A stretch of 39,359 bases of DNA. Origin: a virus. Lineage: Duplodnaviria; Heunggongvirae; Uroviricota; Caudoviricetes. Positions 2,698-34,028 of this stretch are shown piece by piece; position 1 is the first letter of the stretch; every line of letters starts with the position of its first letter. The notes beneath the pieces were generated by a model, which was given only the letters and a program-made list of their open reading frames with translations, was not told where the DNA came from and ran no database searches. The position numbers and the translations under genes are program-made. The stretch is taken from the IMG/VR virus record IMGVR_UViG_2563366943_000021. The stretch is one strand, 5' to 3'.

Positions 2698-3088
2698 CGT
2701 CTTTTCTCCCCGGAATTAACTCGCGTGGATTATCGGAACGGTGATAGAGCCATATACCAATACGCACAGCGACAATTGCTGACACGAATGCGCCTGCAGA
2801 GAAAACAATCCCTTTTTCAAAAGAGTCCTGCGTGATGGTAGGGATCAGGCTGGCTATGCCGATAAGAATTGATGCTGCTGGTTTGTAAAAGAGAAGGCCG
2901 CAAAGAAAGCTGAGCATCGACAGGAGCACCCGGCGACGGATGGGGTACTCTACTGCAGAGGTAACAAAAATTACCGCCCCAGCCAAAGCCCCTAAAGCAA
3001 CCTCCGGAGGGACACCTGCAATAACTGCAGCAAGAGAACCAAAACTAAGCAACTGATTTAATTGCTCACTTGTTACTTGAGCAGACAT
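2684..3088 (-). CDS. Holin
   Basis: 134 aa with several hydrophobic helices and charged C-terminus; first gene of lysis cassette; RBS AGGAG. Confidence 0.6.
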   Translation of the reverse strand: MSAQVTSEQLNQLLSFGSLAAVIAGVPPEVALGALAGAVIFVTSAVEYPIRRRVLLSMLSFLCGLLFYKPAASILIGIASLIPTITQDSFEKGIVFSAGAFVSAIVAVRIGIWLYHRSDNPRELIPGRKDDGNA

Positions 3089-3368: not shown

Positions 3369-3396
3369 ACCCGCAATATTTTGCGGGCTTTTTTTT
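3369..3396 (+). terminator. Plus-strand rho-independent terminator overlapping the tailspike stop codon
   Basis: Stem CCCGCAA / TTGCGGG, loop TATT, followed by 8 T on the plus strand; on the minus strand the hairpin is followed by A-rich sequence. Confidence 0.4.
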
Positions 3397-6300
3397 AACG
3401 TTCTTCCAGAGACTGAACCCGCTCTTTTATCTTATCCATTTCTCTGCGCTGCCATGCTGCCTCGATATAGAATAAGAGATCAGGTCTGACCCCCCATCTA
3501 GATCCTGCTGGCGTTATTTCAACGCGCTCAATGATGTCTTCTATTACCATCACTGGATTATCATCCTCATCAACAATGATGCTCCCGTCATTATCAGTCA
3601 GCGGCATTTCCCTTTGGCCAGTAATGACGTCATCATATACTGCGGGATAATCGTCATAGCAAAGAAAGGCATAGCGGCATGTTGTGCTTTCTTCTTCCAT
3701 GAGTCCGTGAGAAATAAGAACATCACGAAGTTGCTGCGCGATTACACCATGATGTATCCTCGCCCCTTCTTCCCCCTTTATAGCGACAGCGTTCAGCCAT
3801 TTATAAGCGATATACCTGACGTCACCCCAGGCATCCAGCAATGCTTCGTCAGGAGAGACCGGCTCTGTCTTTAATGTTCCGTCACTGGTAACCACAGGAT
3901 TGGAGCCAAGATAAACTGTCGAGAACCTGTTTCCCGGACCACCAAGAGCATTTACATTATCAAGATAAGGTTTAACATCTCCGTTCTCAAAAAGATGTTC
4001 GAGTGCGTTATATACCGCGCGACGTGGAGTACTGCTTCCGGAACCATGCAACGTTATCATTGCACCATCTGCTGAAGACGTTGTTTCACCGCCGCTAACG
4101 ATTAATCTCTGAGCGGTAACATCATCAGACGGTACTTTCTTCGCAATAATGGCGTAATTACCCTCAAGTTTGACTTCCGCGCGAACTTGTCCTGATGTAC
4201 CTGCATGGACAGTCAGTGACTGGACGGCAACATCATCTGTGAAATCAACGGGTACAGGAACCGTCCTCACGCCTGACGTCGACATAAAAGTAGGAAGCGT
4301 TCTGTTAGGAGTGGCTCCGTAGACAAAATCCCTTGAAACAAATTCTTCCTGTTTAATTTTCACCCTGAAACAATACAAATCAGCCGGGTGACCATCGTGA
4401 ACATAAGGATATTTTCTGTTGTTATCCCCTATGCTCCATGGGTTTAGAAAGTCTTCCCCACCGAAAATGTAGTACAGCCAGTTGTCTTTGATACAAACTG
4501 AACCAACACCAACCGCAGAGTTAACTATTCCGCCCTGATAAATCTGATCAGTAACATTAACCCACTCTACATTATCCAGACTCCACTCATTGACGTTAAC
4601 TCTGGTCATAAATGTTCTTGGATAATTTCCTGCATAACGGTTATCAGGTTCTCCTCCTTCCCACTCACCAAATGCGCGCTCACTGCCAAAAATAATCAGC
4701 TCATCGCCAACTTTGGCAAAAGGAAGGTTTGAGTGATGAACATTATTTGGGAAGCGAAGAGAATTCCATGATGTACCTAAATCAGAGCTTCTGTGCAATG
4801 AACTACCGGGTTGAGTACTTAATGTCCCCCTGGTCGTCAGATACAGAATGCCATCATAATATTTTACACATGGCTCAGATGCATTCGCCTCATATTCTAC
4901 AGGTATGCGTCTGCGAACAAAGCTACCAGGAGAACCGAAAGCATCAGAGAAATAGAGTATCCCAAGCTCGCGTGGACCAATATCACCATTATGGTAGCCA
5001 ACAGCAAAACTGTTATCGCTAATCGTCGCAAAACTGTGAATCTCAGTAACAGGAGTGCTTCCGTCAACAAAAGAAGGAATAGTTCCAAGACTGGTTTTTC
5101 TCCATGGTGACGAGTGAAATGATGTGCCAAAACTCCAGTATCTACCCTCGTTATTCTGATCCACATCCTGGGTATTTTGCGTCGTAACTGTAAAGGTATT
5201 TTTATCAATAACAGTAGTCACCGTCATATTCCCGGTAACACCTGTAACACCAGAGTTTGAGAAGTTGACAAAATCACCAGCAAATAATCCGTGATCAGTA
5301 ATGCGAATATAAGCGACTTGCTGATTTGCTGCTTTCGTTATACCACCATAAACGCGAAGGCTGCGACTCATTGGGCGATCCCACAACTCTGCAACCTGCA
5401 GTTTATTTCCTCTCACGGTCCGCGTCTCAATTACAGCAAAAAGGCGATTTCTGACAACCCCCATACTCATGCAGTGATAGTTAACTGTGGGATAGTTTTC
5501 ATGTAAATCTGTAAGCCATTCCGGCGTTGTCCAGGTCTTCCCGTCATCTCCTGAGCGAACCCATGCAACATGGAGGTTATTTACACCATGGCGGTCTCCA
5601 GCCATAAAAGGCGCATAGATGACATTGTCATATACAAACGTTTTATCCTGCGTCCAGGCGTTGTACCACGGTGTATCTGTAATTTTAAATAACTCTCCCT
5701 GGATAAAATCTTCAGAAGCATAAAAAAGAGGCTGGCCCGGTATTCTCTCAAATAAAAAACGAGCATTTTTAAATCGACTGACATCCGGAAGAGTTGATAC
5801 TTTAAAAGTAAGCCCTAATCCGTCAATTTTATAACCTGGAGATGAGGCTTCAAGGCACGCGCTTATTGCAGTGGAATCGTCATTTATACCATCACCAACA
5901 GCTCCAAAATCTTTGGGGCTAATAGCATCACGCATTTTATCCTGGAACGTTCGGTACACAGCCCCAGAACCATACTGAATAAACCAACCAAAACCACCAA
6001 CAACTCCGGCGATTGCAGCATCGACATAATTACGCATTGAGCGATTATTTACAGCGTCCTGCTCAAATGATGGATCTGCAAGGTTAGAAATTTTGTTTTG
6101 CTTTGCATCGTAATATTTTGCAAGCAAAGATGGTTTCATCAATGCACGTCTGAACCACCCAAAACATTGCTGGATCAGCATCGTCAGGTAGTCAAAGGCA
6201 TCTTCATGCACTTCGGGGAAAAATTTTCCCTGATTGCGAAGGTCTGTGTCCTGCACTACATCAAGCACACGATCTATCGTAATTCGCCATCCAGTAGCAA

Positions 6301-6514
6301 GCGGAGACGGAAGAACCACAGAACCGCCACTATAAGTGCCCGCCCCAGTTACCGTATAACCGGTATCCAGGACCAATTCTGTTACGTTCCCGTTCAGGTC
6401 AGACACCTGAACAACCAGGTCTGATTTTCTGAAAATTCGAAAAGTATACGGAAACGATGTCGTAACGCCGTTACCGGTGTATTCGTTGTGGTCAACTTCG
6501 GTTGAGACCGTCAT
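3395..6514 (-). CDS. Tailspike: N-terminal particle-binding domain, Asp-box sialidase-like beta-propeller, C-terminal intramolecular chaperone domain
   Basis: 1039 aa; two Asp-boxes SGDDGKTW (5531-5554) and SSDLGTSW (4766-4789); C-terminal about 150 aa resembles the auto-cleaving chaperone domain of endosialidases; N-terminus resembles epsilon15-type tailspike anchors (recalled). Confidence 0.8.
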   Translation of the reverse strand: MTVSTEVDHNEYTGNGVTTSFPYTFRIFRKSDLVVQVSDLNGNVTELVLDTGYTVTGAGTYSGGSVVLPSPLATGWRITIDRVLDVVQDTDLRNQGKFFPEVHEDAFDYLTMLIQQCFGWFRRALMKPSLLAKYYDAKQNKISNLADPSFEQDAVNNRSMRNYVDAAIAGVVGGFGWFIQYGSGAVYRTFQDKMRDAISPKDFGAVGDGINDDSTAISACLEASSPGYKIDGLGLTFKVSTLPDVSRFKNARFLFERIPGQPLFYASEDFIQGELFKITDTPWYNAWTQDKTFVYDNVIYAPFMAGDRHGVNNLHVAWVRSGDDGKTWTTPEWLTDLHENYPTVNYHCMSMGVVRNRLFAVIETRTVRGNKLQVAELWDRPMSRSLRVYGGITKAANQQVAYIRITDHGLFAGDFVNFSNSGVTGVTGNMTVTTVIDKNTFTVTTQNTQDVDQNNEGRYWSFGTSFHSSPWRKTSLGTIPSFVDGSTPVTEIHSFATISDNSFAVGYHNGDIGPRELGILYFSDAFGSPGSFVRRRIPVEYEANASEPCVKYYDGILYLTTRGTLSTQPGSSLHRSSDLGTSWNSLRFPNNVHHSNLPFAKVGDELIIFGSERAFGEWEGGEPDNRYAGNYPRTFMTRVNVNEWSLDNVEWVNVTDQIYQGGIVNSAVGVGSVCIKDNWLYYIFGGEDFLNPWSIGDNNRKYPYVHDGHPADLYCFRVKIKQEEFVSRDFVYGATPNRTLPTFMSTSGVRTVPVPVDFTDDVAVQSLTVHAGTSGQVRAEVKLEGNYAIIAKKVPSDDVTAQRLIVSGGETTSSADGAMITLHGSGSSTPRRAVYNALEHLFENGDVKPYLDNVNALGGPGNRFSTVYLGSNPVVTSDGTLKTEPVSPDEALLDAWGDVRYIAYKWLNAVAIKGEEGARIHHGVIAQQLRDVLISHGLMEEESTTCRYAFLCYDDYPAVYDDVITGQREMPLTDNDGSIIVDEDDNPVMVIEDIIERVEITPAGSRWGVRPDLLFYIEAAWQRREMDKIKERVQSLEER

Positions 6515-6618
6515 GTTAAATCTCCAGATAGTCGCAGCACCCGTTGCGCCGCATATCTGGTTATTCTATTACCTGAAAAACCATATATGGATAAAAAGAC
6601 TATAAATACCAATAGATA

Positions 6619-6633
6619 TTACCTTTCGGGTAA
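6619..6633. promoter_or_regulatory. Operator site TTACC-TTTCG-GGTAA
   Basis: Perfect 5+5 inverted repeat with 5-bp spacer; intergenic, upstream of LexA box and small antirepressor-domain gene. Confidence 0.6.
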
Positions 6634-6670
6634 TTTGCAAAACGTGCTGGATAGCAAACAAATTATTTGT

Positions 6671-6690
6671 TACTGTATAAACATACAGTT
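6671..6690 (+). promoter_or_regulatory. LexA (SOS) box
   Basis: TACTGTATAAACATACAGTT matches CTGT-N8-ACAG with AT-rich spacer; 20 bp upstream of ORF start at 6710. Confidence 0.65.
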
Positions 6691-6709
6691 ATTGCATGGA
6701 GAAGATAAG

Positions 6710-6967
6710 ATGCAGCAGTATCACTATCCACTGGAAGACGGATTTACCGAAAGGATTCACACGCCGGGAGGCGTCAGGTCACTGGTGGAGGGATCGCACT
6801 TGATGAAATTACTCCGGGATCTCGATAAGGATGGATTTAATGTCGATGGCCCACTTGCCGAACTGACTGCACTGATTAACTACGTCACCAGCTCACAGAT
6901 GTCTATGCAGGATCTGCAAACACATCTCGACTATTGTGCCGAACAATTACGAAAACAAACCAGATAA
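6710..6967 (+). CDS. Small protein paralogous to the C-terminal domain of the antirepressor; candidate SOS-induced antirepressor
   Basis: 85 aa from ATG at 6710 with RBS GGAGAAG; aligns with C-terminus of the 7283-7993 product (HTPGGV/HSPSGV ... AELT); upstream part of the tracked ORF overlaps the operator and LexA box. Confidence 0.55.
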   Translation: MQQYHYPLEDGFTERIHTPGGVRSLVEGSHLMKLLRDLDKDGFNVDGPLAELTALINYVTSSQMSMQDLQTHLDYCAEQLRKQTR

Positions 6968-6970
6968 GGT

Positions 6971-6999
6971 TTGCAATTACCAAATGGAGTGCTTATATT
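6971..6999 (+). promoter_or_regulatory. Sigma70-like promoter (-35 TTGCAA, 17 bp, -10 TATATT) abutting operator
   Basis: Hexamers read directly; the TTACC half-site starts at the last base of the -10. Confidence 0.5.
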
Positions 7000-7013
7000 T
7001 ACCTTTGCGGTAA
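6999..7013. promoter_or_regulatory. Operator site TTACC-TTTGC-GGTAA
   Basis: Perfect inverted repeat; overlaps predicted transcription start of the ant leader. Confidence 0.6.
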
Positions 7014-7103
7014 ATTTACATCGCACTCCTCTTGTGCCATAGTAATCGGGCACTGGCAAAATCCAGTGCCGGGATTGGCGTCCCGAGTTACTAAGTGGCG
7101 CAT

Positions 7104-7127
7104 ACCACGCCAGACGTGGTTTTTTTA
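7104..7127 (+). terminator. Rho-independent terminator or attenuator in the ant leader
   Basis: Stem ACCACG / CGTGGT, loop CCAGA, followed by 7 T; about 100 nt downstream of the promoter and 155 nt upstream of ant. Confidence 0.45.
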
Positions 7128-7282
7128 TGCGTTAAGCACAGCTATATCCGAATTATGGTGGGCTGGGCAGGGGTCCGAAAGGACGCCGGTACCACTTAGG
7201 CCGGTACGCCAACCTTGTCCAGTTCACCACCAGTAATTGGCGTTGCGGTGGTGATTAAAATCACTAAGTGGAGATAACCACC

Positions 7283-7993
7283 ATGGCTAATGCTCAAACT
7301 GCCATCTTCAAATTTGAATCTGTAAACCCTATCCGTTCCATCATTATCGATGGCCAACCATGGTTTGTAGCCCAAGACGTTTGTAGTGCGCTGCGTATCC
7401 AAAACGTCACCCAAGCACTTGAAAAACTGGATGATGATGAAAGGTCTATGTTCAACATAGGGCATGAACATCGTGCAATTTTTGACAGCCGAGTAAAAGA
7501 GATCAACATCATCTCCGAGTCAGGCCTCTACACACTGATCCTCCGCTGCCGCGACGCAGTGACACCAGGCACTATCCCCTACCGCTTTCGTAAATGGGTT
7601 ACAGGTGAGGTTCTTCCTCAGATCCGCCGCACCGGAAGCTACATTAAAAACTCGCTCCCGCAGGAAGAACGCATAAAGATGGTTGCCGACCAGGTAGCCA
7701 ACGCCACGGCGTCAGCAGTAATGCAGGCGATGAAGATAGAGAACAAAACCTACAGCGCCCCACTGAAGCCCGGCTACCGCAGCCTGATTCACTCGCCGTC
7801 TGGTGTTCTCGGCCTGACGGAGAACTCACTGCTGATGAATTTGCTGAACCAGTTGCAGGAAGACGGGCACGATGTATCGGGCGCGGCGGCGGAGCTGACC
7901 ACCATGTTCTGCTACATCGTTGGTGTGAGCAAATGCCTGCGTGATATCCAGACGCACGCGGAGTACATCAACGACAAGGCAGGATTCTTCTGA
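7283..7993 (+). CDS. Antirepressor (Bro-N / AntA-like N-terminal domain)
   Basis: N-terminal IFKFE...DGQPWFVAQDVCSAL matches Bro-N/AntA signature; start set at ATG 7283 with RBS GGAG (tracked start is GTG 7268). Confidence 0.7.
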   Translation: MANAQTAIFKFESVNPIRSIIIDGQPWFVAQDVCSALRIQNVTQALEKLDDDERSMFNIGHEHRAIFDSRVKEINIISESGLYTLILRCRDAVTPGTIPYRFRKWVTGEVLPQIRRTGSYIKNSLPQEERIKMVADQVANATASAVMQAMKIENKTYSAPLKPGYRSLIHSPSGVLGLTENSLLMNLLNQLQEDGHDVSGAAAELTTMFCYIVGVSKCLRDIQTHAEYINDKAGFF

Positions 7994-8038
7994 CAGAACG
8001 GCGGCACAGGGATGTGCCTTTAAATAATTCTGTACAGA

Positions 8039-8067
8039 TTGCAGACTGGGGGTGAATAGCGTACTAT
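8039..8067 (+). promoter_or_regulatory. Sigma70-like promoter (-35 TTGCAG, 17 bp, -10 TACTAT) abutting operator
   Basis: Same geometry as promoter at 6971-6999. Confidence 0.5.
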
Positions 8068-8081
8068 TACCTTAAAGGTAA
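8067..8081. promoter_or_regulatory. Operator site TTACC-TTAAA-GGTAA
   Basis: Perfect inverted repeat immediately upstream of RBS AGGAGG. Confidence 0.6.
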
Positions 8082-8093
8082 AGGAGGCGCGAT

Positions 8094-8261
8094 ATGACAG
8101 CGTTGAAAAATCGTACTCAGCACAATGAACAAGCCAAGCAATGCTGGGATGTCATTGGAAAAGTTATGCTTGGCCGCGCAAGCAAAGAGCGCGACAAGGA
8201 TATGGTTTACCAGACAGGAACATCTTTCAGCGACTTCAAGGCGGCATTTCGCTCCAAATAG
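8094..8261 (+). CDS. Hypothetical small protein (55 aa), first gene of a two-gene cassette
   Basis: Absent from ORF track (below 60 aa); strong RBS AGGAGG 6 nt before ATG; GC-normal; operator-controlled promoter upstream. Confidence 0.45.
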   Translation: MTALKNRTQHNEQAKQCWDVIGKVMLGRASKERDKDMVYQTGTSFSDFKAAFRSK

Positions 8262-8281
8262 AAGCACATCAGGAGTTTTCC

Positions 8282-8722
8282 TTGAAGTTTAACATTAGAA
8301 TATCTAATAGTTTTCTACATGGGGAAAGCAACACCCCTTTCGCTGTAGACGGACCTTTCCTTACTGATGATGAAATAAAAATCATACAAAGTTTTTTAGA
8401 GGATGTTGCCAATGGAAGGGCGCTTGTTGGAAAAAACAAGCCCTCGTGGGTTGATGATAACCATGATAAAATTCCCGGCTCAGACAATTATGAGCAAGAG
8501 AATTATTGGCATTATCATTGTGGGCCAACATGGTATCCAAACACATTTAAGAATTATACCATTAACTTAAATTTCAACCCTGGCGGAAGGCATTCTAATG
8601 AATGCATTCATTATGCAAAAAATGATAATGAAATTGTCATTGTTGGATTTTCAAGAGAACACATACCTTTCCTTTCATCAGATGGAAACAACAATCCGCT
8701 TTTTAATGATGAAGAAGAATAG
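8282..8722 (+). CDS. Hypothetical AT-rich protein (about 146 aa), second gene of cassette
   Basis: AT-rich relative to neighbours; putative TTG start with RBS AGGAG 6 nt upstream, in frame with tracked ORF 8141-8722; no family recognised. Confidence 0.45.
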   Translation: MKFNIRISNSFLHGESNTPFAVDGPFLTDDEIKIIQSFLEDVANGRALVGKNKPSWVDDNHDKIPGSDNYEQENYWHYHCGPTWYPNTFKNYTINLNFNPGGRHSNECIHYAKNDNEIVIVGFSREHIPFLSSDGNNNPLFNDEEE

Positions 8723-26020: not shown

Positions 26021-26097
26021 GTGGCATTAGCTCAGCTGGACAGAGCAACCGCCTTCTAAGCGGTTGGTCGCAGGTTCGAATCCTGCATGCCACGCCA
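26021..26097 (+). tRNA. tRNA-Arg (anticodon UCU)
   Basis: Hand-folded cloverleaf: 7-bp acceptor stem GTGGCAT/ATGCCAC, D-arm GCTC..GAGC, anticodon stem ACCGC/GCGGT with loop CTTCTAA (anticodon TCT), T-arm GCAGGTTCGAATCCTGC, discriminator G, encoded CCA. Confidence 0.8.
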
Positions 26098-33443: not shown

Positions 33444-34028
33444 ATGAAAAGTATCCAGGACGTCCGCAGGCAAAATCTCAACGACTTGATCGACCGTGAA
33501 TTCAATGGTGTTCAGACGCGGATGGCAGAAAAACTTGGAACTCAGGCAAATCTGGTAAACCGCTGGGCTCTTGGCAAGAAGGTTATCGGCGACCAGGTTG
33601 CACGAAAAATTGAAGCTGCCGCCAATAAACCCCGTAACTGGCTTGATATCGATCGCTCGCTTTCTCAGGAAGGTTTTCAGCCTGTCGGCCCAAGCGACAT
33701 TGGTCAGCTGGCGGCTCACAACCTGGAACGCTGGATGAGCGAAAGCCGCGACCTTTCAACGCAGGGAAAACTTCACCGCGCATCCGGCGTCGCCCAGGTG
33801 ACAATCAGTCGCCTGTTAAACAATGAGGTCAGCGTTTCCATTTCCACCCTGGAGAATGTTGCATCCGCATTCGGGCGTCACGGCTATGAATTACTGATTC
33901 ACCCGCACGACCCTGCGACCATCAACTATGACCGCTCGCGCTACGCATTGTTACCCGAAACCGAGAAAGCAAAGATCGAAAGTTACATTGAATTTGTCAT
34001 CAACCAGAACGAAAAAAACAAACAATAA
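33444..34028 (+). CDS. Prophage repressor candidate with two HTH domains and no S24 peptidase domain
   Basis: 194 aa; HTH-like segments (AEKLGTQANLVNRWALG and ASGVAQVTISRLLNNE); no Ser-Lys autocleavage motif; divergent from cro-like gene; own terminator. Confidence 0.6.
   Translation: MKSIQDVRRQNLNDLIDREFNGVQTRMAEKLGTQANLVNRWALGKKVIGDQVARKIEAAANKPRNWLDIDRSLSQEGFQPVGPSDIGQLAAHNLERWMSESRDLSTQGKLHRASGVAQVTISRLLNNEVSVSISTLENVASAFGRHGYELLIHPHDPATINYDRSRYALLPETEKAKIESYIEFVINQNEKNKQ

Follow-up and report, generated by a model that had tools for sequence, protein, structure and literature searches.

In phages P1 and P7, an antirepressor operon is controlled from the immI region by the antisense RNA C4. 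The C4 RNA of P1, studied by Citron & Schuster (1990, 1992), is reportedly a processed, trans-acting antisense RNA of 77 nt that represses ant, and Biere et al. (1992) are said to have found that the block of icd translation leads to Rho-dependent polarity on ant. The P1 record contains the tandem P2c4/P1c4 promoters and the Oc4 operator, and places b2 at the Shine-Dalgarno sequence of icd, with the ATG 10 nt later; the role of the a1/b1 sites is given in that annotation only as 'putative'. A second system of this kind is isrK-orf45(STnc1160)-anrP in Gifsy-1 of Salmonella (RF01394; PMC4825925). There, the short IsrK RNA binds Hfq and activates anrP translation 139-fold in trans, and a processed RNA of ~80 nt, STnc1160, derives from the isrK read-through transcript (PMC4825925). 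The authors of that work interpreted the system as a structural mRNA switch and not as a titration of the C4-like RNA, and when they co-expressed STnc1160, the outcome gave no support to its being a simple repressor (PMC4825925).

We analyzed the region 5′ of the antirepressor gene ant in a stretch of phage DNA of 39,359 nt, hereafter referred to as the window. Rfam searches detected two RNAs in tandem on the + strand, both at gathering score: isrK at 7050-7126 and C4 at 7151-7234. The isrK match (RF01394, 67.2 bits, gathering score 50) covered model positions 1-77 of 77, including the two 5′ hairpins and the Rho-independent terminator, and the C4 match (RF01695, 66.0 bits, gathering score 45, E = 8e-11) covered model positions 1-87 of 87; C4 of P1 itself scores 68.8 bits with RF01695. 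A third family, RF03163 (c4-a1b1), gave 44.3 bits, just below its gathering score of 46.7, and the same three matches were obtained with the P1 immI region (68.8, 51, and 35 bits). A SNORD18 match at 7426-7489 (18 bits, E = 1.9) was discarded as noise. A sequence-only reading of this DNA had proposed that a terminated small RNA is involved, and these matches bear it out; its view of an RNA-level control of the antirepressor also holds, and its interpretation as a whole is partly supported. The region is not an uncharacterised attenuator but the classic P1 C4 antisense system joined to an IsrK-type small RNA (Table 1), that is, a known RNA switch found again in another phage. We give a probability of about 0.85 to the reading that the leader module 5′ of ant is an immI-type antirepressor control of the family of P1/P7 C4 and Gifsy-1 IsrK, and that its carrier is an epsilon15/phiV10-like (Uetakevirus) phage of E. 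coli.

Table 1. Features of the ant leader and the ant gene (positions in the window).
Feature	Positions	Strand	Evidence
Candidate upstream sigma-70-like promoter, TTGCAA-17-TATATT	6971-6999	+	promoter scan
Operator-type palindrome TTACCTTTGCGGTAA (TTACC-N5-GGTAA), between both promoters; putative binding site	6999-7013	.	motif count
Candidate downstream promoter, TTTACA-17-CATAGT with upstream TG	7015-7043	+	promoter scan; conserved position
IsrK-like 5′ RNA: hairpin 1 (7049-7070), hairpin 2 (7071-7085), single-stranded linker, terminator; bears a1 and b1	7050-7126	+	Rfam, fold, compensatory changes
Site a1, TTGGCGT, loop of hairpin 2, complementary to a′	7075-7081	+	duplex -11.9 kcal/mol; covaries with a′ and a2
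Site b1, CTAAGTGG, linker before terminator, complementary to b′	7091-7098	+	duplex -12.6 kcal/mol; covaries with b′ and b2
Intrinsic terminator, ACCACG-CCAGA-CGTGGT then T7; stem 7104-7120, T7 run to 7127; presumed use as terminator	7104-7127	+	terminator scan, independent of isrK model
C4 antisense RNA, predicted mature form of ~75 nt	7157-7231	+	Rfam (match 7151-7234), fold; ends by alignment to P1 c4
Site b′, CCACTTAG, wholly inside 9-nt loop (7191-7199) of C4 hairpin 2	7192-7199	+	sequence and fold
Site a′, ACGCCAA, exactly the 7-nt unpaired C4 junction	7206-7212	+	sequence and fold
Target a2, TTGGCGT, 5 nt past predicted C4 3′ end	7237-7243	+	repeat and duplex energy
Target hairpin (predicted): stem formed by GGUGGUGA (7247-7254) and the ACCACC immediately 5′ of AUG; b2 and Shine-Dalgarno apical	7247-7283	+	fold prediction only
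Target b2, CTAAGTGG, overlaps ant Shine-Dalgarno GGAG (7270-7273)	7264-7271	+	repeat and duplex energy
ant, regulated gene, 236-aa antirepressor with Bro-N domain; ATG 7283	7283-7993	+	Pfam Bro-N, E = 9.6e-20

Transcription of the leader was assigned by the sequence-only reading to the promoter at 6971-6999. This promoter-like site is present, its -10 element abuts the operator, and by position it corresponds to P2c4 (P51a) of P1, which is repressor-controlled. The promoter with the conserved position is, however, the one at 7015-7043, which had been overlooked: a TTGnnn-17-TAnnnT promoter ending 6 nt before hairpin 1 occurs in P1, where it is annotated as P1c4, and in about 28 other loci. Judged from its position, the 7015-7043 promoter is homologous to P1c4 (P51b). 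It ends 6 nt before its predicted transcription start at ~7050, where position 1 of the isrK model falls, so that the RNA would start at hairpin 1 as in isrK, and the leader measured from it would be about 233 nt and not the 280 nt proposed earlier. The operator motif was found at 13 sites in the 39,359-nt window vs 0.63 expected. Two of them (33326 and 33374) are located just upstream, and two others (34086 and 34148) just downstream, of an HTH_3 repressor candidate (33444-34028), and the phage repressor would bind the copy at 6999-7013.

In the IsrK-like RNA, compensatory changes are present in both hairpins. Hairpin 1, with arms GGCACTGG/CCAGTGCC at 7049-7056/7063-7070 on the + strand, and the terminator with its stem and T7 run are found where they had been described. 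The terminator would end the short IsrK-like RNA, and read-through transcripts would carry C4 and ant. The T-run at this position is kept in 36 of 39 homologous loci and also in P1, and 5 nt separate b1 from the terminator stem downstream of it. Both observations would suit a control of termination as in phage P4, in which C4 bound to nascent a1/b1 promotes or prevents termination at 7104-7127 and the share of read-through sets ant expression. P4 immunity (CI RNA, seqA, seqB, seqC) also resembles the present locus in that a processed leader RNA pairs with repeated sites up- and downstream of itself, and the IsrK paper, which names the P4 CI RNA as a structural homologue and cites it with seqA/seqC, raises this possibility (PMC4825925). 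P4 CI leads to premature transcription termination of replication genes and not to occlusion of an antirepressor ribosome-binding site (RBS), and the Rfam search of the leader gave no match to a P4-specific family. Against termination control as the main mechanism, the overlap of b2 with the Shine-Dalgarno sequence is seen at practically all loci and points to translation as the step chiefly regulated, and STnc1160 of Gifsy-1, when made constitutively, did not act as a termination factor (S14 Fig, PMC4825925). We consider P4-like termination control an unlikely explanation of the locus; it could be present as an added autoregulatory layer.

The C4 RNA is predicted to fold into a closing stem of 17 bp that surrounds two hairpins and a single-stranded junction of 7 nt, and the MFE structure of this domain is identical to its centroid structure (-43.6 kcal/mol, z = -5.0). 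Its probable ends were placed by alignment with the annotated P1 c4 RNA (48343-48419). RNAalifold on 33 sequences recovered the same fold, a long stem enclosing two hairpins and the junction, with covariation, and 25 of the 37 consensus pairs (IsrK hairpins plus C4 fold) showed compensatory changes. In this fold, a′ and b′ are exposed. Their complements a2 and b2 follow C4 on the + strand, b2 being placed on the RBS, and a further copy of these targets (a1 and b1) precedes c4 in the same transcript. The b triple corresponds to the repeated 8-mer of the sequence-only reading, in which the middle copy (7192-7199) and the copy overlapping GGAG (7264-7271 and 7270-7273, respectively) were placed correctly, while the first copy lies at 7091-7098 and not, 2 nt off, at 7089-7096. 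It is also correct that the middle copy is complementary to both flanks and that one of the pairings covers the ant RBS. The second triple, TTGGCGT at 7075-7081 and 7237-7243 with ACGCCAA at 7206-7212, had escaped attention. On both strands of the window the 8-mer motif occurs only three times (0.73 expected), and all the copies are within 181 nt; a chance repeat was rejected on the basis of this count and of the covariation of the copies.

Local duplex energies amounted to -12.6 kcal/mol for the b sites and to -10.3 to -11.9 kcal/mol for the a sites, and those of cross pairings to -2.6 to -3.0 kcal/mol, except for a′-b1 (-8.5 kcal/mol). Simple MFE cofolding of C4 with the targets produced no intermolecular pairs and no net gain (ddG 0). 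Kissing contacts between loops of stably folded stems are outside what this method can model, so we regarded its outcome as uninformative and relied on the local duplex energies. Whole-molecule duplex folding, which yielded long unrealistic duplexes that unfolded C4, was set aside. Folding predicts the target hairpin for each of the five Uetakevirus specificity types, with differing stem sequences.

The sequence-only reading saw in the same complementarities two mutually exclusive structures; as a switch purely in cis, with no separate antisense RNA, 7192-7199 would pair either with 7091-7098 or with 7264-7271 and thereby open or close the ant RBS. A choice between pairing partners is also part of the Gifsy-1 IsrK model, which has experimental support: the full-length isrK-orf45 RNA has two alternative structures, A and B, as seen in native gels and with compensatory mutations (PMC4825925). 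With the whole leader folded, however, both the MFE and the centroid structure keep C4 as a closed autonomous domain of high stability (see the z value above) in which b′ is unpaired, and neither of the cis pairings is formed; folding of the leader, to which the sequence-only reading had pointed as a check, retrieved the stable C4 domain and none of the mutually exclusive structures. The middle 8-mer forms the apical loop of a separate RNA, homologous to P1 C4 and about 75 nt long, that folds stably on its own, and an attenuator or conformational switch in a passive leader is not the best name for the locus. C4 of P1 reportedly acts in trans after processing (Citron & Schuster 1992). The short RNA of Gifsy-1 acts in trans as well (PMC4825925). 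We regard a switch operating purely in cis as improbable, and note that cis and trans action are not mutually exclusive.

Further evidence on the pairing comes from related loci. Eighty Uetakevirus loci fell into five a/b types, and in each type a1/a′/a2 or b1/b′/b2 change together; these five combinations are found among leaders that are otherwise about 80-99% identical. Among the 80 Uetakevirus and 50 bacterial loci the 8-mer sequence is not conserved, yet complementarity is retained and the triples change in concert. The sequence-only reading would have counted a lack of conservation of the 8-mers against its proposal. That criterion is misleading, as the sequences do differ between homologues and all three copies change together, so the pairing is supported. 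In the 50 bacterial loci, the C4 loop and its cognate b2 share at least 7 Watson-Crick bp in 44 cases, compared to 2.3% of the non-cognate combinations, and the loop and its cognate b1 do so in 37 (non-cognate, 1.6%); the b element occurs in 30 different sequences and the a element in 7. The longest cognate and non-cognate runs were compared register-free, because the b1/b2 alignment columns were gappy and out of register. The pattern used for the genome scan also matched unrelated phyla by chance, and loci devoid of a′/a2 were left out of the members. Tandem isrK and C4 matches at gathering score were obtained in all 15 loci tested, and b2 of the homologues always ends in or beside the Shine-Dalgarno sequence, with the ATG 3-13 nt downstream. 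We also observed that b1 is often weakened with respect to b2 by G-U pairs, a feature that could set the induction threshold.

The Ant protein is 81% identical to ORF4 of phage vB_EcoP_ZX5, whose overexpression decreased the prophage titre about 1000-fold (PMC9782041). As in known C4 systems, the Bro-N Ant together with the operator motif near the HTH_3 candidate suggests an antirepressor operon under the control of a phage repressor. Coding of a small protein between the terminator and ant (orf45, 'Ash' or an Icd-like leader peptide), coupled to ant and with the repeats being incidental, has precedents: orf45 of Gifsy-1 is translated and coupled to anrP (PMC4825925), and in the ZX5 record this segment is annotated as a CDS for an 'ash family protein' of 37 aa. 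Nevertheless, none of the + strand frames through C4 stays open as far as ant. A TAG within b′ (7197-7199) ends the ORF at 7095-7199, and the ORF at 6934-7236 has its stop at 7234-7236, so that, unlike the read-through orf45 coupled to the antirepressor gene in the isrK system, no ORF spans C4 and reaches ant. Neither Pfam nor NCBIfam gave a match for the ZX5 peptide or its equivalent in the window, and the substitutions track RNA pairing and not codons. On account of the closed frames and the lack of family matches a protein-coding leader was rejected, and we hold this explanation to be highly improbable.

The RNA-based reading agrees with P1/P7 immI in the order of the elements (operator, tandem promoters, a1, b1, terminator-like hairpin, C4, a2, b2 at the Shine-Dalgarno sequence, ATG), in the length of the a sites (7 nt) and b sites (8 nt), in the location of b′ in a hairpin loop and of a′ in the junction, and in the antirepressor encoded by the regulated operon. 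It differs in the sequences of a (TTGACAG in P1, TTGGCGT here) and b (GTTAGTGA in P1, CTAAGTGG here), in the operator, which covers the -35 of the upstream promoter in P1 and lies here between the promoters, in the product, Ant1/Ant2 in P1 and a single Bro-N Ant here, and in the type of phage, a plasmid prophage in P1 and an integrating podovirus here. The icd gene is present in P1, and other C4-family loci carry Icd-like ORFs of 63-65 aa at the icd position, whereas this phage lacks icd and has b2 on the Shine-Dalgarno sequence of ant itself; the start codon 11 nt past b2 is that of ant, the Bro-N gene of 236 aa, and not of a P1-type icd. Therefore, the P1 route cannot apply as such.

Gifsy-1 resembles the locus in the 5′ RNA, which matches the full isrK model with its Rho-independent terminator, in the read-through transcript, which contains a C4-like processed RNA followed by the antirepressor gene, and in the complementarity of the short RNA to the downstream RNA. 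It differs in the presence of orf45, which is absent here. Given that the frames across C4 are closed, ant cannot be activated via translational coupling, and since the ant module lacks a coupling ORF (icd, orf45), the downstream step must differ from those of P1 and Gifsy-1. A further parallel is P22 immI (sar, arc, mnt, ant), where a small antisense RNA covers the ant RBS and a podovirus immI lies beside the tailspike gene. The P22 sar RNA is transcribed from the opposite strand as a genuine cis-antisense RNA and shows no relationship to C4 in sequence or structure. The Rfam search gave no P22 sar-type match, and we know of no arc or mnt homologue in this phage.

By analogy with these systems, we propose that transcription would start at ~7050 from the 7015-7043 promoter, and maybe also from the 6971-6999 promoter once the repressor leaves the operator at 6999-7013. 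The first product would be an IsrK-like RNA that ends at the terminator (7104-7127) and presents a1 in the loop of a hairpin and b1 in an unpaired linker. Read-through transcripts would continue into C4 (about 7157-7231), a2, b2 together with the Shine-Dalgarno sequence, and the ant gene. C4 would fold independently, displaying b′ in its loop and a′ in its junction, and would be excised by RNase P by analogy with P1. Pairing of b′/a′ with b2/a2 on the ant mRNA, both in cis and in trans, would cover the RBS and block Ant synthesis, which would leave the prophage repressor active. The a1/b1 sites on the short RNA may serve as decoys competing for C4, and an excess of the short RNA would free ant translation, like short IsrK does for anrP. 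The sequence data establish the family membership, the layout of the module, the exposed complementary elements and their joint evolution, from which the transcript ends, processing, action in trans and direction of regulation are inferred.

Collectively, these results place the system in the epsilon15/phiV10-like phages of E. coli, whose published annotations at this locus give only 'terminator', a hypothetical peptide or 'ash family protein'. The functional study of the vB_EcoP_ZX5 antirepressor does not mention RNA control either (PMC9782041). For specialists no new question is opened. The locus is a natural variant in which C4 would be aimed directly at the antirepressor RBS, and it could help to tell RBS occlusion from the ORF coupling of P1 and Gifsy-1. 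The concerted change at three sites in the five specificity types predicts which of the related prophages are hetero-immune at the RNA level. More tentatively, and with somewhat less than even confidence, we suggest that the C4/IsrK module of Uetakeviruses acts directly on the ant RBS, that its a and b elements reassort independently and may thereby form a combinatorial RNA 'immunity code' for cross-induction among co-resident or superinfecting relatives, and that the terminated a1/b1 RNA would be its built-in anti-antisense decoy.

The whole window was scanned against Rfam at gathering thresholds, and three matches were obtained. One of them was a tRNA, and the remaining two adjoin each other on the + strand of the leader of the antirepressor gene ant: isrK (RF01394) at 7050-7126, with 67.2 bits (gathering score 50), and C4 antisense RNA (RF01695) at 7151-7234, with 66.0 bits (gathering score 45). 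In a permissive scan only, c4-a1b1 (RF03163) was found at 7037-7089 with 44.3 bits vs a gathering score of 46.7. The same scan of the P1 immI region gave 68.8 bits for C4, 51 bits for c4-a1b1 and 35 bits for isrK, the last match also covering a hairpin and U-run that resemble a terminator. Since the window and P1 immI give matching Rfam families, their leaders are homologous piece by piece. Moreover, isrK followed by C4, both at gathering score, was present in 15 of 15 loci scanned with Rfam. The family to which the leader element belongs has long been known and is picked up by routine Rfam annotation, and we consider repression of ant by a C4/IsrK-type RNA module the best overall explanation (probability about 0.85). 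Bacterial prophage loci with isrK-C4 also have other phage- or island-associated Rfam RNAs nearby, namely EFASI, STnc100 (two copies) and int-alpA (locus L082, 7600-7730; L156, 690-902 and 1257-1455; L115, 2143-2210; L153, 3830-3898). The window carries a tRNA-Arg gene, anticodon TCT, at 26021-26097 (+).

The promoter-like site, the hairpin (7049-7070) and the terminator proposed in the sequence-only reading are all present, as are CCACTTAG at 7192-7199 and the CTAAGTGG copy overlapping GGAG 7270-7273 ahead of the ant ATG; the upstream CTAAGTGG copy exists as well, but lies two bases rightward of where it had been placed. These three 8-mers are b1, b′ and b2, where a′ and b′ denote the C4 recognition elements, a1/b1 their upstream target copies and a2/b2 the downstream ones. 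Both strands of the 39 kb contain just three copies, vs 0.73 expected, all inside 181 nt. That reading had thus listed the b triple but overlooked a1, a′ and a2, while its general intuition of RNA control of ant, with ribosome-binding site occlusion and a terminated small RNA, was sound.

Features of the leader, its flanks and the operator-type palindromes of the window
Feature	Position	Strand	Sequence or remark
Upstream promoter	6971-6999	+	TTGCAA-17-TATATT
Operator (candidate)	6999-7013		TTACCTTTGCGGTAA; between the two leader promoters
Downstream promoter	7015-7043	+	TTTACA-17-CATAGT
a1	7075-7081	+	TTGGCGT
b1	7091-7098	+	CTAAGTGG
Terminator	7104-7127	+	stem, then T7 run
C4	about 7157-7231	+	ends placed via alignment to P1 c4
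a2	7237-7243	+	TTGGCGT
b2	7264-7271	+	CTAAGTGG
ant ATG	7283	+	11 nt past b2
ant	7283-7993	+	236-aa Bro-N antirepressor; one flank of leader
Tail-fibre gene	3395-6514	minus	other flank of leader
TTACC-N5-GGTAA starts	6619, 6999, 8067, 25684, 28874, 28892, 30988, 31050, 32989, 33326, 33374, 34086, 34148

The comparison with P1 rests on its richly annotated record, in which the C1-controlled operator Oc4 and promoters P2c4 and P1c4 are followed, in order, by a1 (7 nt), b1 (8 nt), the 77-nt c4 RNA, a2 (7 nt), b2 (8 nt, at the icd Shine-Dalgarno) and the icd ATG 10 nt past b2. The window repeats the same element series. In P1, b2 lies on the Shine-Dalgarno of icd, through which repression passes to ant, whereas in the window the ATG 11 nt past b2 opens ant directly. 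In Gifsy-1, orf45 is translated, overlaps the C4-like RNA (STnc1160) and has its translation coupled to that of anrP (PMC4825925). Both known systems therefore have a coupling ORF (icd or orf45) and the window has none, as none of its + strand frames across C4 reaches ant, the ends falling at 7197-7199 (TAG inside b′) and 7234-7236; this is the only notable variation of the module. Among bacterial loci, the first gene past b2 encodes 63-65 aa Icd-like proteins, a family of ~153 aa or larger products of 223-319 aa, one or more of them with the same Bro-N-type N-terminal motif, and therefore the direct arrangement is one of several existing variants rather than unique.

A coding explanation for the leader was excluded in the window. 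The GenBank record of phage vB_EcoP_ZX5 (L202, 1265-1378) places a 37-aa 'ash family protein' CDS exactly over C4 and the a2/b2 sites, and in that of phiV10 the segment immediately upstream, with the terminator and the first part of C4, carries a misc_feature, 'similar to hypothetical protein SF0880'. The window's counterpart of the ZX5 frame (7156-7236) closes early, and neither peptide had a Pfam or NCBIfam match. In both cases an RNA gene has probably been annotated as a protein by mistake.

We also compared the leaders of 79 IMG/VR loci with close Ant relatives and of phiV10, which fall into five recognition types. Element a is TTGGCGT in the window type (b, CTAAGTGG), in that of the Uetakevirus locus L074 (b, CTACAAAGG; b1 is CTACAGAGG, with one G-U pair) and in the phiV10/ZX5 type (b, CTAAAAGG); it is TTTGCAC in type L045 (b, CTAAAAGG) and TTGGTCT in type L078 (b, CTAAGTGG). 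Every one of the five types has the exact complementary change in a′ or b′. Variation of the 8-mers among homologues had been proposed as evidence against regulation; their sequence is indeed not conserved, yet all three copies move together, which implies the opposite.

A search with an isrK-core pattern, covering a single genome for each bacterial species, returned 80 loci, and pairing statistics were obtained for the 50 in which a1, a′ and a2 are spaced as expected. An uninterrupted run of 7 or more Watson-Crick pairs linked the C4 hairpin-2 loop to the b2 region of the same locus in 44/50 loci (non-cognate locus pairs, 2.3%) and to the b1 region of the same locus in 37/50 (1.6%), and most remaining loci reach 7-11 bp once G-U pairs are allowed. 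The 39 exact-triple loci hold 30 distinct b and 7 distinct a sequences. RNAalifold analysis of 33 diverse leaders recovered both IsrK hairpins and the C4 fold, with compensatory changes in 25 of 37 pairs. Pairing of b1 with b′ often needs G-U wobbles (L074-type loci; L092, L096, L103, L108, L139, L141) where b2 keeps 8-9 Watson-Crick pairs, which suggests that, of the two sites, the upstream decoy b1 consistently pairs less strongly.

The predicted C4 fold (-43.6 kcal/mol, z = -5.0, MFE = centroid) leaves unpaired a 9-nt hairpin loop (7191-7199) containing b′ and a 7-nt junction (7206-7212) that is exactly a′. Local duplex energies were -12.6 kcal/mol for b′ with b1 or b2 and -10.3 to -11.9 kcal/mol for a′ with a2 or a1, vs about -3 kcal/mol for mismatched combinations, except a′-b1 (-8.5). 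A purely cis conformational switch of the leader is not favoured: in the fold of the entire leader, C4 stays closed and b′ is left without a partner, and there is precedent for action in trans. The cis and trans modes can nevertheless coexist. A predicted hairpin (7247-7283) holds b2 and the Shine-Dalgarno apically in all five Uetakevirus types, which would fit loop-loop recognition by C4. GGTGGTGA (7247-7254) has two complementary partners: TCACCACC (7224-7231; within 7221-7232), which forms the 3′ side of the closing stem of C4, and its near-duplicate AACCACCA, immediately ahead of the ant AUG (7272-7283). In unprocessed read-through RNA, this alternative pairing could couple the accessibility of the start codon to the folding of C4.

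The window contains 13 copies of the palindrome TTACC-N5-GGTAA, where 0.63 would be expected. Two of them (33326, 33374) lie shortly before, and two (34086, 34148) shortly after, the gene for a 194-aa HTH_3 protein (33444-34028), probably the prophage repressor, and the set looks like the phage's operators, spread over many sites like the C1 operators of P1. Hairpin 1 is preceded, at a distance of 6 nt, by a sigma-70 promoter in about 28 homologous loci; P1 has the same geometry, the element being its annotated P1c4 promoter, and from the window counterpart transcription is predicted to start at ~7050, where the isrK model begins. By position, the upstream promoter corresponds to P2c4 of P1, which is under repressor control. 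The leader operator sits inside a longer inverted repeat, GGAGTGC...GCACTCC (6981-6992/7023-7034), and phiV10 (L001, about 2988-3028) has a perfect 18-bp-arm palindrome, GGAGTGCTTATATTTACC-N5-GGTAAATATAAGCACTCC, at the equivalent operator, which suggests a putative extended or higher-affinity operator. Another copy (8067-8081) lies directly 3′ of ant, ahead of ORFs 8094-8261 and 8141-8722 (+), which, including a 193-aa protein, had no Pfam match and may form a further repressor-controlled moron/accessory unit.

The window represents a temperate phage or prophage of E. coli that belongs to the epsilon15/phiV10-like group (Uetakevirus). Over 6500-8100 its identity to phage HEMP4 is 96.7%, and phiV10, TL-2011b, vB_EcoP_ZX5 and the O157 typing phages match about 80% of this region at 92-95% identity. 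Ant is 81% identical to ORF4 of ZX5, overexpression of which lowered prophage titre ~1000-fold (PMC9782041). An 85-aa ORF (6710-6967, +), homologous to epsilon15 gp19 and phiV10 p24 and preceded by its own operator-type site (6619-6633), shares 42% identity (E = 9e-16) with Ant residues 155-228. It had no significant Pfam/NCBIfam match (DUF724 and UpsF, the sole matches, were far under curated cut-offs), in effect duplicates the C-terminal domain of Ant as an ORF of its own, and could be a second, minimal antirepressor or an Ant modulator.

The sequence evidence establishes the family of the module, its layout, and both the exposure and the co-evolution of its complementary elements; the course of events given next, from transcript ends and processing to action in trans and the direction of regulation, is inferred. 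In the C4/IsrK-type module, transcription would start at ~7050, and the upstream promoter may add starts on derepression. Part of the transcripts would stop at 7127, giving an IsrK-like RNA on which a1 and b1 are exposed; P4-like control, in which C4 acts on a1/b1 to modulate this termination, is possible as an extra layer. Read-through would yield C4, expected to fold autonomously and, by analogy with P1, to be excised. In Gifsy-1, the short IsrK raises anrP translation 139-fold (PMC4825925). Pairing of C4 b′ and a′ with b2 and a2 would cover the Shine-Dalgarno and block Ant synthesis both in cis and in trans, and the short IsrK-like RNA would compete for C4 and favour Ant production.
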